A DNA stretch of 64,000 nt from Escherichia coli (GTDB lineage Bacteria; Pseudomonadota; Gammaproteobacteria; Enterobacterales; Enterobacteriaceae): NCBI RefSeq assembly GCF_048403405.1, contig NZ_CP183129.1; one strand, written 5' to 3'. The notes beneath the pieces were generated by a model that was not told the origin of the DNA, made no database searches, and saw nothing but the letters and a program-made list of their open reading frames with translations. A program made the position numbers and the translations under genes. Positions 15,801-50,476 of the stretch are shown here, piece after piece (the stretch's first letter is position 1; every line of letters begins with the position of its first letter).

Positions 15801-16031
15801 CATAAAACGCGTATTGACTCGCTGTTCCTTGATGAAGGTTTTGGCACGCTGGATAGCGAAACGCTGGATACCGCCCTTGATGCGCTGGATGCCCTGAACG
15901 CCAGCGGCAAAACCATCGGTGTGATTAGCCACGTAGAAGCGATGAAAGAGCGTATTCCGGTGCAGATCAAAGTGAAAAAGATCAACGGCCTGGGCTACAG
16001 CAAACTGGAAAGTATGTTTGCAGTGAAATAA
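12888..16031 (+). CDS. sbcC: SbcCD nuclease subunit C (Rad50/SMC-like ATPase)
   Basis: 1047-aa ORF with N-terminal Walker A (GPTGAGKTT), a long Gln-rich coiled coil with a CPLCGS zinc hook, and a C-terminal signature/Walker B region ([20 protein letters not shown]...[10 protein letters not shown]). Confidence 0.96.
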
Positions 16032-16156
16032 CTATTCAGCAGGATAATGAATACAGAGGGGCGAATTATCTCTTGGCCTTGCTGGTCGTTATCCTGCAAG
16101 CTATCACTTTATTGGCTACGGTGATTGGTAGCCGTTCTGGTGGTTGTGATGGTGGT

Positions 16157-17341
16157 ATGAAAAAAGTCATTTTATCTTTGGCTCTGGGCACGTTTGGTTT
16201 GGGGATGGCCGAATTTGGCATTATGGGCGTGCTCACGGAGCTGGCGCATAACGTAGGAATTTCAATTCCTGCTGCCGGGCATATGATCTCGTATTATGCG
16301 CTGGGGGTGGTGGTCGGTGCGCCAATCATCGCACTCTTTTCCAGCCGCTACTCACTCAAACATATCTTATTGTTTCTGGTGGCGTTGTGCGTCATTGGCA
16401 ACGCCATGTTCACGCTCTCTTCGTCTTACCTGATGCTCGCCATTGGTCGGCTGGTTTCCGGCTTTCCGCATGGTGCATTTTTTGGCGTCGGCGCGATCGT
16501 GTTATCGAAAATTATCAAACCCGGCAAAGTCACCGCCGCCGTGGCGGGGATGGTTTCCGGGATGACAGTCGCCAATTTGCTGGGCATTCCGCTGGGAACG
16601 TATTTAAGTCAGGAATTTAGCTGGCGTTACACCTTTTTATTGATCGCTGTTTTTAATATTGCGGTGATGGCATCGGTCTATTTTTGGGTGCCGGATATTC
16701 GCGACGAGGCGAAAGGGAAGCTACGCGAACAATTTCACTTTTTGCGCAGCCCGGCCCCGTGGTTAATTTTCGCCGCCACCATGTTTGGCAACGCAGGTGT
16801 GTTTGCCTGGTTCAGCTACGTAAAGCCATACATGATGTTTATTTCCGGTTTTTCGGAAACGGCGATGACTTTTATTATGATGTTAGTTGGGCTAGGGATG
16901 GTGCTGGGGAATGTGCTAAGTGGCCGGATTTCAGGACGTTATTCACCACTGCGCATTGCGGCAGTAACTGACTTTATTATTGTGCTGGCACTGCTGATGC
17001 TCTTTTTCTTCGGCGGCATGAAAACAACGTCGCTTATTTTTGCATTTTTTTGTTGCGCGGGATTATTTGCCCTTTCAGCACCACTGCAAATATTGTTACT
17101 GCAAAATGCCAAAGGCGGAGAGTTATTAGGTGCCGCAGGTGGGCAAATAGCGTTTAACCTCGGTAGCGCCGTCGGCGCATATTGCGGTGGTATGATGCTG
17201 ACGCTGGGGCTGGCATATAATTACGTGGCGCTGCCTGCCGCCCTGCTTTCGTTTGCTGCGATGTCGTCATTGCTGCTGTATGGTCGCTATAAGCGCCAGC
17301 AAGCGGCGGATAGTCCGGTGCTGGCGAAACCACTGGGGTAG
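16157..17341 (+). CDS. araJ: MFS transporter AraJ
   Basis: Matches AraJ MKKVILSLALGTFGLGMAEFGIMGVLTELA...; start placed at the ATG at 16157 (394 aa). Confidence 0.9.
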   Translation: MKKVILSLALGTFGLGMAEFGIMGVLTELAHNVGISIPAAGHMISYYALGVVVGAPIIALFSSRYSLKHILLFLVALCVIGNAMFTLSSSYLMLAIGRLVSGFPHGAFFGVGAIVLSKIIKPGKVTAAVAGMVSGMTVANLLGIPLGTYLSQEFSWRYTFLLIAVFNIAVMASVYFWVPDIRDEAKGKLREQFHFLRSPAPWLIFAATMFGNAGVFAWFSYVKPYMMFISGFSETAMTFIMMLVGLGMVLGNVLSGRISGRYSPLRIAAVTDFIIVLALLMLFFFGGMKTTSLIFAFFCCAGLFALSAPLQILLLQNAKGGELLGAAGGQIAFNLGSAVGAYCGGMMLTLGLAYNYVALPAALLSFAAMSSLLLYGRYKRQQAADSPVLAKPLG

Positions 17342-17368
17342 ATTGCAGTCACGGTGCACGTTGCTTAT

Positions 17369-17456
17369 TGCCGGATGCGGCGTGAACGCCTTATCGGCCT
17401 ACGGTTCCGGCACATTTTGCAGGCCTGATAAGATGCGGCAAGCGTCGCATCAGGCA
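17369..17456. repeat. REP/BIME element (two palindromic units) between the araJ and mak 3' ends
   Basis: gccggatgcggcgtgaacgccttatcggcctac and aggcctgataagatgcggcaagcgtcgcatcaggc are typical E. coli REP palindromic units at a convergent junction. Confidence 0.8.
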
Positions 17457-17480
17457 TGATACGCCAATTGCCTGGTTTTT

Positions 17481-18389
17481 TTACTCTTGTGGCCATAACC
17501 ATGCAGCGCCGCGTACGCCGCTCGAATCACCATGTTTCGCCTTGCGTACCGGCGTTTCACATTCTCCGCCGAAGACAAATTGTTTAATCAACTGCGGAAC
17601 CGTTTGATATAAACGGTCTACATTGCTCATTCCGCCGCCCAGGACAATCACATCCGGATCGAGAATATTCACGACATGTGCCAGCGATTTTGCCAGCCGC
17701 AGCTCGTAGCGACGCAATGCCAGTTCCGCTACCGGATCGCTTTCTTCTACCAGGCGGATAATTTCACTGCCTTTCAGCGCATGTCCGCTCAAACGACGAT
17801 AATCCGTCGCGAATCCCGTGCCCGAAATAAAGGTTTCAATACAACCTTGTTTACCGCAATAACAAGGGACTTCCTCGCGATAACGCAGTTCGTCTTCGTC
17901 CATCCACGGTAGCGGATTGTGTCCCCACTCACCTGCCGTGCCATTGCCGCCGATATGCGCCCGCCCATTGAATGCCACGCCCGCGCCGCATCCCGTGCCG
18001 ATAATCACGGCAAATACCGTCTGCGCTCCCGCTGCCGCACCATCTACTGCTTCTGAAACCGCCAGACAGTTGGCGTCATTTGCCAACCGTACTTCCCGCT
18101 GCAACCGCGCGCTTAAGTCTTTATCGAATGGCTGACCGTTGAGCCAGGTTGAATTGGCATTCTTCACCACACCGGTGTAGGGCGAAATCGAACCTGGAAT
18201 GCCCATACCTACCGTTCCGCGCTGCCCTGTCGCCTGCTCCGCCATATCAACCAACGTGGCGATCGTTTCAATAGTCTGCTGGTAATCATCACGCGGCGTG
18301 GGCAGACGATGGCGGTACAACTGCTCCCCTGCATCGCCCAGTGCAATCACTTCAGTTTTGGTGCCGCCTAAATCGATACCTATACGCAC
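17481..18389 (-). CDS. mak: Fructokinase / manno(fructo)kinase, ROK family
   Basis: ROK-family ORF ...[14 protein letters not shown]...; start assigned to the GTG (complement of 18387-18389) with an upstream GGAGAG, giving the 302-aa K-12 length. Confidence 0.88.
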
Positions 18390-18513
18390 GGTACTCTCCT
18401 TATTTTTTTCAATATCAATAGCGTAGAGACGGACAACCGGATTGGCAATGCAAGGCCGCCGACAATTCGTTATCATGCCCGCTAAATTTAACGACAAGGC
18501 CGTGGAAATTATC

Positions 18514-19425
18514 ATGCTGTGGTTCAAAAATTTAATGGTTTACCGTCTTAGCCGCGAGATTTCGCTGCGTGCAGAAGAGATGGAAAAACAGCTAGCCTCG
18601 ATGGCATTTACCCCATGCGGCAGCCAGGACATGGCGAAGATGGGCTGGGTTCCTCCGATGGGATCGCACAGCGATGCGTTAACGCACGTTGCCAATGGTC
18701 AAATTGTTATCTGCGCGCGCAAAGAAGAAAAAATCCTCCCGTCTCCGGTGATTAAACAGGCGCTGGAAGCGAAAATCTCCAAACTGGAAGCGGAACAGGC
18801 GCGTAAGCTGAAGAAAACCGAAAAAGATTCGCTGAAAGACGAAGTGCTGCATTCTCTGCTGCCGCGTGCTTTCAGCCGTTTTAGCCAGACAATGATGTGG
18901 ATCGACACGGTTAACGGTTTGATTATGGTGGACTGCGCCAGTGCCAAAAAAGCGGAAGATACGCTGGCACTGCTGCGTAAAAGCCTGGGGTCGTTACCGG
19001 TTGTACCATTGAGCATGGAAAACCCGATTGAACTGACGCTGACCGAATGGGTACGTTCCGGCAGCGCGGCACAGGGCTTCCAGCTGCTTGATGAAGCCGA
19101 GCTGAAATCGTTGCTGGAAGATGGCGGCGTGATCCGCGCGAAGAAACAAGATCTGACCAGCGAAGAGATCACCAACCACATTGAAGCCGGAAAAGTGGTG
19201 ACTAAACTGGCGCTCGACTGGCAGCAGCGCATTCAGTTTGTGATGTGCGACGATGGTTCGCTCAAGCGTCTGAAGTTCTGCGACGAGCTGCGCGATCAAA
19301 ACGAAGATATCGACCGTGAAGATTTCGCCCAGCGTTTTGATGCCGATTTCATCCTGATGACTGGTGAACTGGCAGCGTTAATTCAAAACCTGATTGAAGG
19401 ATTAGGTGGCGAAGCACAACGTTAA
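18514..19425 (+). CDS. rdgC: Recombination-associated protein RdgC
   Basis: Matches Rdg[35 protein letters not shown]...; start at the ATG at 18514 (303 aa). Confidence 0.94.
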
Positions 19426-19433
19426 TTGCTGAT

Positions 19434-19467
19434 TTACCTTTAATGCCGGATGCGACGCCTGCCGCGT
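19434..19467. repeat. REP palindromic unit downstream of rdgC
   Basis: gccggatgcgacgcctgccgcgtcttatccggc (REP consensus-like palindrome). Confidence 0.7.
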
Positions 19468-19582
19468 CTTATCCGGCGTGCGAAGCTACACCAGGCATAT
19501 AATTATTCGCTACGGCGGGCAATAATTTTTAGCGCAGCAATATTATGCGTTTTATGCTGTAACTTGCTCCAGGGGCGTTGTG

Positions 19583-19864
19583 TCATTGTTTTTCCTCAAG
19601 CCGGTGACGCGCTTCACTGCGAATTTTTCGCGTTGCCCCGGTTTTCACTAAATCACGTAACAGCGAAAGATCGGGTTGTTCGACAAATAAGAGTAATGAT
19701 GGATCCTCTTTTAACCACGCCGTTTTCACATCGGCAGCCAGCTGTGAATTATTAATAGCCAGCGACCGCTCCTGAGGCTCAGTCAATGTCGTTAACAACA
19801 ACACCGGGGTATGTGCGTTGTGCAATGCCGTTTGGCGCAAATGATCATTGCGACTTTGCAGCAA
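19583..19864 (-). CDS. ykiA: Small hypothetical protein in the rdgC-ppnP gap (possibly the ykiA equivalent)
   Basis: 93-aa ORF from the track (MLQSRNDHLRQTALHNAHTPVLL...). The position matches where I recall ykiA in K-12, but I cannot verify the sequence, and my hand count of the start codon near 19860 did not fully reconcile with the track. Confidence 0.35.
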   Translation of the reverse strand: MLQSRNDHLRQTALHNAHTPVLLLTTLTEPQERSLAINNSQLAADVKTAWLKEDPSLLLFVEQPDLSLLRDLVKTGATRKIRSEARHRLEEKQ

Positions 19865-20071
19865 TGCACGCCACCATTCATCATCTGATTTATCTTTTAT
19901 CGTCGCCAGTTCCGCAACAATATCTGGAGATCTTCGCTGATATTTATATCAACCTTGATGAATTATGAATATATCGGAAATCGAAAAAATCCCAGCAAAG
20001 GAAATATTATTATGGGTTAAAGAGAGGACATTTCAGATAAATGCCCTCCCGTTCAAGGGGAAGGCGAGGAA

Positions 20072-20356
20072 TTACAGATAGCGGCACAGATAAGAGGTGG
20101 GTTCGGCAACTTGCAGATGAAACTCGCTGTGACCGGGAACATTAAACACCGAACCGGCTTCATACACTTGCCAGTCGGTCGCGTCAGGCAGTAACACATT
20201 CAGCGCGCCACTGATTACCGTCATCTCTTCAGGCTCAGCGGTGCTGAAGGTGTATTCACCTTCAACCATAACACCCACGCTGGCGCGACCAGTGCTGCTG
20301 CTGGAAAAGCCGATCGATTTCACTTTGCCGGAAAAGTACTCATTACTTTGAAGCAT
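20072..20356 (-). CDS. ppnP: Pyrimidine/purine nucleoside phosphorylase
   Basis: 94-aa [40 protein letters not shown]... matches PpnP (YaiE). Confidence 0.93.
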
Positions 20357-20427
20357 AAACTGGCCCTGTCTGGTAGTTGAACATCTACTTCACTATAGGG
20401 GCCAGAGGCGCTGGCTGTCACGCAAAA

Positions 20428-21105
20428 TTACATCAGTAATTCCGCAGCCAGCCGTGCAATCAATACGTTAGAGAGCAAAACAGGAACATCGAGCTGTTTT
20501 TGCAGTAAATCGCGATGACGCTGGTTAAATCCCAAACAATCCAGCATGATGACATCTGCACCTTTTTCCAGTAATTCTTTTCCGGCATCAATGATTTTTT
20601 GTTCCGAATCATGAATGGGGTTACCCAATGAAAATACTGGCGGTTTCTGCAAAATTTGCCATTTTTGCGCCTGAACGGTCAGCAACTCCTCAACCGGAAC
20701 GATAACCCCCACCTGATGATCTTCAACAATAGAAGAAACCAGCGGAGGCAATATTCGCGACGGCTCAAGAAAGATCGTATTACGCGCAGTCATACTACTA
20801 ATGTTTGCTGTACTCATTAATAAAATGACGTCATAACCCTGATTATCGAGCACTTCAACCACACCTTGCAGGTCACGCTCCACTTTGCGACGCGAAACAT
20901 GGGCCAGCTGGTTGTCATTTAATAATGTGAGAATTGTGTCTTCGCCTGCTTCTGGCGCGTACTCCGCCATCACTTCTTCGCGGCTTAACTTCCCCAGCAG
21001 GCTATGATGGGAAATATTATCTTCGTCAATGTATTCTGTCAGGAGCGGCAAAACTTCCTGCATAGGTACAATGCCGATGGTCAGGATCGCCAACGACGCA
21101 CTCAT
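20428..21105 (-). CDS. aroM: AroM protein
   Basis: 225-aa [37 protein letters not shown]...; position downstream of aroL-yaiA as in the aroL-yaiA-aroM operon. Confidence 0.92.
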
Positions 21106-29508: not shown

Positions 29509-29565
29509 GATTTACTTGCCAGATAGGACCTAAAACGCTTTATCTGGCATGACATTCCTGTTTGA

Positions 29566-34099: not shown

Positions 34100-37060
<2,961 letters not shown>

Positions 37061-38560: not shown

Positions 38561-38599
38561 TGTTCATTATGCCGGGTTATCCAACCCGGCATTTCCCCC

Positions 38600-48365: not shown

Positions 48366-48380
48366 TAATAGTGCACGACT

Positions 48381-48466
48381 GCCGGATGCGGCGTGAACGC
48401 CTTATCCGCCTACATTTCGCCCGCAGGCCGTAGGCATGATAAGACGCGCATAGCGTCGCATCAGGC
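48381..48466. repeat. REP/BIME element (two palindromic units) between frmB and yaiL
   Basis: gccggatgcggcgtgaacgccttatccgcctac and gcaggccgtaggcatgataagacgcgcatagcgtcgcatcaggc. Confidence 0.8.
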
Positions 48467-48489
48467 ATCTACGTACGACTTATCTATGT

Positions 48490-50417: not shown

Positions 50418-50476
50418 ACTGCCTACGGGCGAAGAAAATGTAGGCCGAACAAGGCGTTTACGCCGCATCCGGCAGT
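50418..50476. repeat. REP element between mhpT and mhpE
   Basis: gtaggccgaacaaggcgtttacgccgcatccggcag (REP-like palindrome). Confidence 0.7.

Follow-up and report, generated by a model that had tools for sequence, protein, structure and literature searches.

Knowledge of the REP and BIME elements of Escherichia coli goes back to the 1980s, and a REP hairpin on the 3' side of a transcript shields the upstream mRNA from exonucleases. The REP is an imperfect palindrome of 30-40 nt whose stem has a conserved mismatch, and the 4.64-Mb K-12 chromosome contains 584 copies, roughly one every 8 kb (PMC3333891). The BIME-2 elements combine a Y and a Z2 REP over a short linker and are arranged in tandem in some strains (PMC3333891; PMC1187871). 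The copy number of tandem BIMEs varies between strains (PMC3333891), and a passage of PMC1187871 that cites Bachellier et al. 1997 describes the BIME-2 loci as generally present across isolates and highly length-polymorphic. In vitro, the TnpAREP protein cuts and recombines BIMEs, and models have been put forward for the amplification of units; the GTAG tetranucleotide is needed for binding of the protein in vitro (PMC3333891). The only known locus of rayT in E. coli is placed between yafL and lfhA, where replacement by hicAB has been described in the literature.

Other systems resemble these elements in part. The BIME-1 (RIP/RIB) elements contain a Y and a Z1 unit separated by a long L linker with an IHF site (PMC3333891), and occur in single copy. 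In Pseudomonas, the REPINs and RAYT-associated REPs are formed by inverted REP doublets as the repeat unit, and the mobilising enzyme proposed for them, as for the E. coli REPs, is a domesticated IS200/IS605-like Y1 transposase (PMC3116915, PMC2817692). The Rho-independent terminators are also GC-rich hairpins downstream of stop codons.

REP copies in a 64-kb window

The window, which is the whole stretch of 64,000 nucleotides analysed here, is a segment of the E. coli chromosome that extends from tgt as far as lacA and runs against the K-12 MG1655 numbering (361-427 kb). Over positions 16000-21000, six complete genomes match it at 100% identity, and nearly all others of the 5,426 that were searched match it at 95-99%. 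The gene map was taken from the near-identical complete genome of strain 4621 (NZ_CP103479.1), which differs from the window by only four substitutions in a direct comparison. Window positions 712-7685 correspond to positions 1-6974 of the strain 4621 locus, and the coordinates are identical from 7680 on. The MG1655 RefSeq record carries no REP repeat_region features and the K-12 REPs were therefore called by the same scans as those of the window.

Some differences from the reference genomes concern other genes. The proY-brnQ gap (window 7655-7731) carries a 711-bp IS200C in strain 4621 that is absent from the window; the insertion adjoins a GC-rich terminator-like hairpin. The mhpR gene (56983-57816) is an intact ORF of 277 codons in the window and an annotated pseudogene with an internal stop in strain 4621; position 57246, one of the four substitutions, is G in the window and A in strain 4621. 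In the ehaB/yaiT autotransporter region, about 1.5 kb (35433-36978) have no megablast alignment to K-12, and the adjoining segments are only 94-96% identical to it. The IS3 and IS2 insertions of K-12 yaiT and yaiX are absent from the window.

The REP head motif GCCKGATGCGRCGY, with at most one mismatch, was found nine times in the window against 0.37 expected, a count reached in none of 100 shuffles. Two profile HMMs were then used with nhmmer. The first (HMM 1) was built from the K-12 REPs of the orthologous region. Since this training set is orthologous to the targets, the scan was repeated with an independent profile (HMM 2) trained on the six REPs around K-12 rayT, at a distance of about 110 kb from the K-12 equivalent of the window. 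Both recovered the identical seven full-length REPs, distributed over five sites. With HMM 1 the seven score E=2e-10 to 7e-8 and the next match E=0.21; with HMM 2 they score E=4e-9 to 2e-4 and the next match E=1.8, whereas the best matches of HMM 2 in five shuffled windows ranged from E=0.018 to 2. The two remaining motif matches, inside lacZ on the - strand (60934-60947 and 61726-61739), were rejected as REPs: both are half-sites and do not fold like one. A search of the whole window with Rfam at gathering thresholds gave no matches; Rfam has no family for REPs. The features are the following.

17369-17403, + strand: Y-type REP, araJ/mak; E=8e-10 (HMM 1), 1e-8 (HMM 2); -14.2 kcal/mol with the canonical internal mismatch; 27 nt past the araJ stop; CTAC tail kept, one stem base deleted relative to K-12
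17404-17418, no strand: linker of 15 nt, araJ/mak, with the Y and Z2 REPs tail-to-tail on its two sides; aligned with the unit in K-12
17419-17456, - strand: Z2-type REP, araJ/mak; E=7e-8 (HMM 1), 2e-6 (HMM 2); -15.5 kcal/mol, z=-3.1; 24 nt past the mak stop; tail CTGC, not CTAC, with the same CTGC in the K-12 copy 411179-411217
19444-19479, + strand: single atypical REP, rdgC; E=1.4e-8 (HMM 1), 2e-4 (HMM 2); -23.2 kcal/mol, z=-4.3; Y-like head (GCCGGATG), Z2-like inner stem, GCGT in place of the CTAC tail; 18 nt past the rdgC stop and 23 nt from that of a convergent ykiD-like ORF, in the gap between the two
29517-29549, no strand: possible decayed REP-like hairpin, yaiY/yaiW (convergent); -13.1 kcal/mol, z=-4.1
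48380-48414, + strand: Y-type REP, frmB/yaiL; E=5e-10 (HMM 1), 4e-9 (HMM 2); 14 nt past the frmB (fghA) stop; CTAC tail present
48415-48428, no strand: linker of 14 nt, frmB/yaiL, between the Y and Z2 tails
48429-48467, - strand: Z2-type REP, frmB/yaiL; E=2e-9 (HMM 1), 2e-8 (HMM 2); -14.7 kcal/mol, z=-3.8; 22 nt past the yaiL stop; CTAC tail present
50420-50438, no strand: REP tail remnant TGCCTAC (50420-50426, 7 nt) and short linker, shared with K-12
50439-50474, - strand: single Y-type REP, mhpE-mhpT; E=9e-10 (HMM 1), 2e-8 (HMM 2); -17.4 kcal/mol; 47 nt past the mhpE stop, 96 nt ahead of the mhpT start; CTAC tail present
63486-63521, + strand: single Y-like REP, lacY-lacA; E=2e-10 (HMM 1), 8e-8 (HMM 2); -19.2 kcal/mol, z=-4.6; 8 nt past the lacY stop, 21 nt ahead of the lacA start; tail CAAC, not CTAC; identical in sequence to the K-12 copy 361882-361917

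All seven REPs measure 35-39 nt and give one hairpin each, with folding energies between -14 and -23 kcal/mol and, as is typical of REPs, an unpaired position in either arm of the stem. They are intergenic in every case and lie 8-47 nt past stop codons. The flanking genes are convergent at three sites (araJ/mak, rdgC/ykiD-like and frmB/yaiL) and co-directional at the other two, where mhpE is followed by mhpT and lacY by lacA. The density of seven in 64 kb, about one per 9 kb, is near that of K-12.

Two loci, 17369-17456 and 48380-48467, are BIME-2 units in which a Y and a Z2 REP are inverted tail-to-tail over linkers of 15 and 14 nt, respectively. The rdgC, mhpE-mhpT and lacY-lacA loci contain single REPs and lack this pairing. 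At the mhpE-mhpT locus, the TGCCTAC at 50420-50426 is the relic of a truncated partner REP. The GTAG/CTAC tetranucleotide is conserved in four of the seven REPs (17369, 48380, 48429 and 50439) and is variant in the copies at 17419, 19444 and 63486. With respect to this tetranucleotide the three variant copies are degenerate; two of the variant tails, CTGC and CAAC, are shared with the K-12 orthologues.

A sequence-only reading of the same DNA had reported REP palindromes at these five sites, and the seven copies recovered by the two profiles and by the hairpin folds bear it out. The genes it named at the sites all agree with the annotation of the near-identical genome. Its coordinates are within 1-4 nt at four of the five sites; at rdgC it gave 19434-19467, about 10 nt too far left. 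The label of BIME fits the inverted pairs of araJ/mak and frmB/yaiL but not the three single REPs, and the description of the sites as inter-operon junctions fails for lacY-lacA, which is inside the lac operon. The list of five sites holds, but did not include the REP-like hairpin at 29517-29549.

The seven sequences almost certainly belong to the REP (palindromic unit) family of E. coli and are ordinary examples of it. The identification of the REPs and BIMEs is based on the profile matches, the hairpin with its internal mismatch, the extragenic placement at gene 3' ends and the inverted Y/Z2 pairing. The profile, the size, the mismatch and the 3' placement are those of the Y and Z2 types described as BIME-2 (Gilson, Bachellier, Hofnung; PMC3333891, PMC1187871). 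The inverse orientation of Y and Z2 over a short linker and the strain-variable number of units are also alike, and nothing essential differs. The BIME-1 elements share with the pairs of the window the inverted arrangement of REPs, including a Y unit. This class was rejected for the window pairs because the partner is Z2, with the long inner stem CGACGC...GCGTC, and not Z1, and because the linkers of 14-15 nt are exceeded by the long L linker. In addition, BIME-1 is a single-copy element, whereas elements of the type seen in the window form tandem arrays in other strains. The Pseudomonas REPINs share the inverted doublet but belong to another sequence family; furthermore, deep E. coli lineages have orthologues of the window copies, and strain 4621, the proxy genome, has no rayT at the canonical site.

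Promoter and terminator scans at four of the five sites (lacY-lacA excluded) predicted no site that coincides with a REP. A simple terminator scan detected no T-tract at the REPs, which are thus not classical intrinsic terminators. On the + strand, window 17450-17480 contains a separate hairpin (CAGGCA-N12-TGCCTG followed by T7) that resembles an intrinsic terminator for araJ, the 5' arm of which overlaps the head of the Z2 REP. This hairpin was missed by the terminator scan because the scan accepts loops of up to 8 nt only.

Array lengths in K-12 and in complete genomes

The same five loci carry full REP copies in K-12, with 19 copies against seven in the window. Apart from a degenerate locus between yaiW and yaiY, the shared region of K-12 has no REP locus beyond the five. 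At rdgC and at lacY-lacA, each genome has one REP. At araJ/mak and at frmB/yaiL, K-12 has two Y+Z2 units and the window one, the extra unit measuring about 100 bp at each locus. At mhpE/mhpT, K-12 has nine REPs (4.5 units) and the window one (0.5 unit). The size difference at this last locus is exactly 404 bp, which corresponds to four Z2+Y units of 101 bp, with identical flanks on both sides. On these alignments, the arrays of the window and K-12 differ by whole Y+Z2 units, which explains three indels between the two genomes as whole BIME-2 units.

The degenerate K-12 locus is the orthologue of the hairpin at 29517-29549. With HMM 2 the K-12 sequence scores E=3.9e-4, whereas that of the window scores E=6.1, below significance. 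In the alignment of the two, the outer stem of the window hairpin is retained and even improved. It is possibly the relic of a decayed REP.

The three variable loci were compared in evenly spaced samples from searches of the 5,426 complete genomes, using queries of 901 bp centred on each locus. In the samples, 29 one-unit and 29 two-unit alleles were found at araJ/mak, and 35 one-unit and 23 two-unit alleles at frmB/yaiL. At mhpT/mhpE, 28 alleles have a single REP; the excess length is about 100 bp in seven others, about 30 bp in one and about 300 bp in another. K-12-type long arrays also occur at this locus, and for 17 rows more, among them K-12 derivatives, the mhpT and mhpE halves were not joined into one place. 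Both short and long alleles are therefore common in the sampled genomes, and of the common alleles the window has the shortest at each of the three loci. The differences in copy number between the window and K-12 are the published length polymorphism of BIME-2 and are already known. The description of these elements as ordinary for E. coli is upheld by their density, by the occupation of the same five loci in K-12 and by this polymorphism; on copy and arrangement, for which the sequence-only reading had pointed to K-12, the loci coincide but the copies are fewer and the arrays shorter.

The differences in copy number result from gain or loss of whole tandem units. Such events could proceed via unequal recombination, via replication slippage between direct repeats or, possibly, via RayT/TnpAREP.

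rayT and other readings of the short arrays

In another reading, the REPs are currently mobile, non-autonomous (REPIN-like) elements moved or amplified by RayT/TnpAREP, and the minimal arrays are the consequence of the loss of this enzyme in the lineage. The cleavage and recombination of BIMEs by TnpAREP in vitro, together with the amplification models, agree with it (PMC3333891). The gene rayT is not in the window. In strain 4621, examined over the yafL-lfhA region (L006 25874-28439), the gap between yafL and lfhA measures 97 bp, and rayT, the BIMEs that flank it and hicAB are all missing from this canonical locus, compared with 896 bp, rayT and six REPs in K-12. The junction of the near-identical strain TUM14771 is empty in the same way. 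This junction is rare, being present in few genomes of an evenly spaced sample, and close relatives with 99% flank identity carry hicAB. Genomes like that of the window also show 1-3 megablast places for the BIME queries against 7-19 in K-12 and O157, which hints at a REP-poor lineage. A literature search on the phylogroup of this lineage retrieved nothing.

On the other hand, O157:H7 strains carry the rayT REPtron (PMC3333891), yet have the same minimal alleles at all three variable loci, and a published survey observed no clear link between the presence of rayT and the number of REPs (PMC3333891). The REP positions are orthologous to those of K-12 at five of five loci, with no sign of recent transposition, and the absence of rayT refers to the canonical locus of proxy genomes only. 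Current mobility is accordingly quite improbable. It is similarly improbable that the source lineage is REP-poor, a reading suggested by the minimal arrays, the few megablast matches and the proxies with neither the rayT REPtron nor hicAB. If array length did track rayT, such lineages would provide a natural experiment on the maintenance or amplification of BIMEs by RayT in vivo.

The rayT-less junction of strain 4621 (L006 27593-27689) contains a GC-rich palindromic repeat, GTCCCCTCGCCCC.TTGGGGAGAGGG, which is also present in the K-12 tauD-hemB gap (L003 28148-28253) and which we take to be boxC-like. A search of the window for this element found no copy, and the hemB-tauD gap of the window (38561-38599) has a plain hairpin.

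A collapse of tandem units of about 100 bp during assembly would also give short arrays, since short-read assemblies can collapse tandem 100-bp repeats. Several independently finished complete genomes that are 99.99-100% identical to the window have the same short alleles, however, and these recur in about half or more of the complete genomes sampled, including the O157:H7 reference strains. An artefact of this kind is hardly credible, and the short arrays are common alleles.

The reading of the hairpins as locus-specific transcription terminators or chance palindromes, outside any dispersed repeat family, would suit their placement at gene 3' ends, where terminators are expected, and the T7-tract hairpin at 17450-17480, which looks like a real araJ terminator, but it had almost no probability and is refuted by the family-profile matches: the profile from the distant rayT locus finds all seven copies (E=4e-9 to 2e-4, against a best E=0.018 in shuffled windows), copies at loci 31 kb apart are 81-97% alike, the REPs themselves are followed by no T-tract, and the BIME-containing 901-bp queries have matches at 8-14 places in the median E. 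coli genome, all of which sets a dispersed family of conserved sequence apart from the Rho-independent terminators. All observations fit the published descriptions of REP and BIME-2 elements and are already known.

Proposed roles and the acpH/malZ insert

Three roles may be proposed for the REPs of the window by analogy with other loci and strains, from which the protection of mRNA, the damping of translation and the binding of gyrase are all carried over. In the transcript, each REP would form a stable 3' hairpin that slows the 3'-to-5' exonucleolytic decay of the upstream message. Reviews on REP function are cited in PMC12306157. The same source summarises the work of Liang et al. 2015, according to which a REP that starts at most 15 nt past a stop codon makes ribosomes stall at termination and reduces the expression of the gene ahead of it. 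With distances of 8 nt and 14 nt, respectively, lacY and frmB would qualify for this translational damping, and both are flagged here since their stop codons lie within the published range of 15 nt; the other six genes (rdgC, yaiL, the ykiD-like ORF, mak, araJ and mhpE) are outside it. A literature search on the lacY-lacA REP retrieved nothing relevant. In K-12, DNA gyrase cleavage is enriched in BIME-2 elements, where the Y REP is preferred, and this does not depend on transcription (PMC6379681). At the DNA level, the BIME-2 units of the window, and above all their Y REPs, could thus be preferred sites of gyrase binding and cleavage.

The significance of these results is small and mainly of a housekeeping nature, one point being that the insert between acpH and malZ has no REP at its borders. 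Compared with K-12, this insert adds 1,660 bases (window 2649-4308) between the convergent acpH and malZ genes. Within positions 1-7000, neither profile gave a match better than E=3, in agreement with the sequence-only reading that no REP flanks the insert. That reading had also taken the absence as an argument against REP-mediated acquisition. The borders are indeed free of REPs, but this is weak evidence on the mechanism because the empty K-12 site, a gap of 4 bp between the convergent stop codons, has no REP either. At the insert junctions no target duplication and no terminal or inverted repeats were seen.

The insert is AT-rich, with 37.5% GC against 53% in the flanks, and 1,126 of the 5,426 complete E. 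coli genomes carry it at this site. It contains an ORF of 485 aa on the - strand (2666-4123), for which searches of Pfam, NCBIfam, PADLOC, PHROGs and the PDB sequences gave nothing above threshold. Within this ORF, a 12-bp tandem repeat of about nine copies extends over window 3190-3297; it is CGCAATTTTTTT-like on the + strand and encodes a lysine-rich repeat of four residues (EKIAEKIAKKTEEENAKKIAKQNAK).
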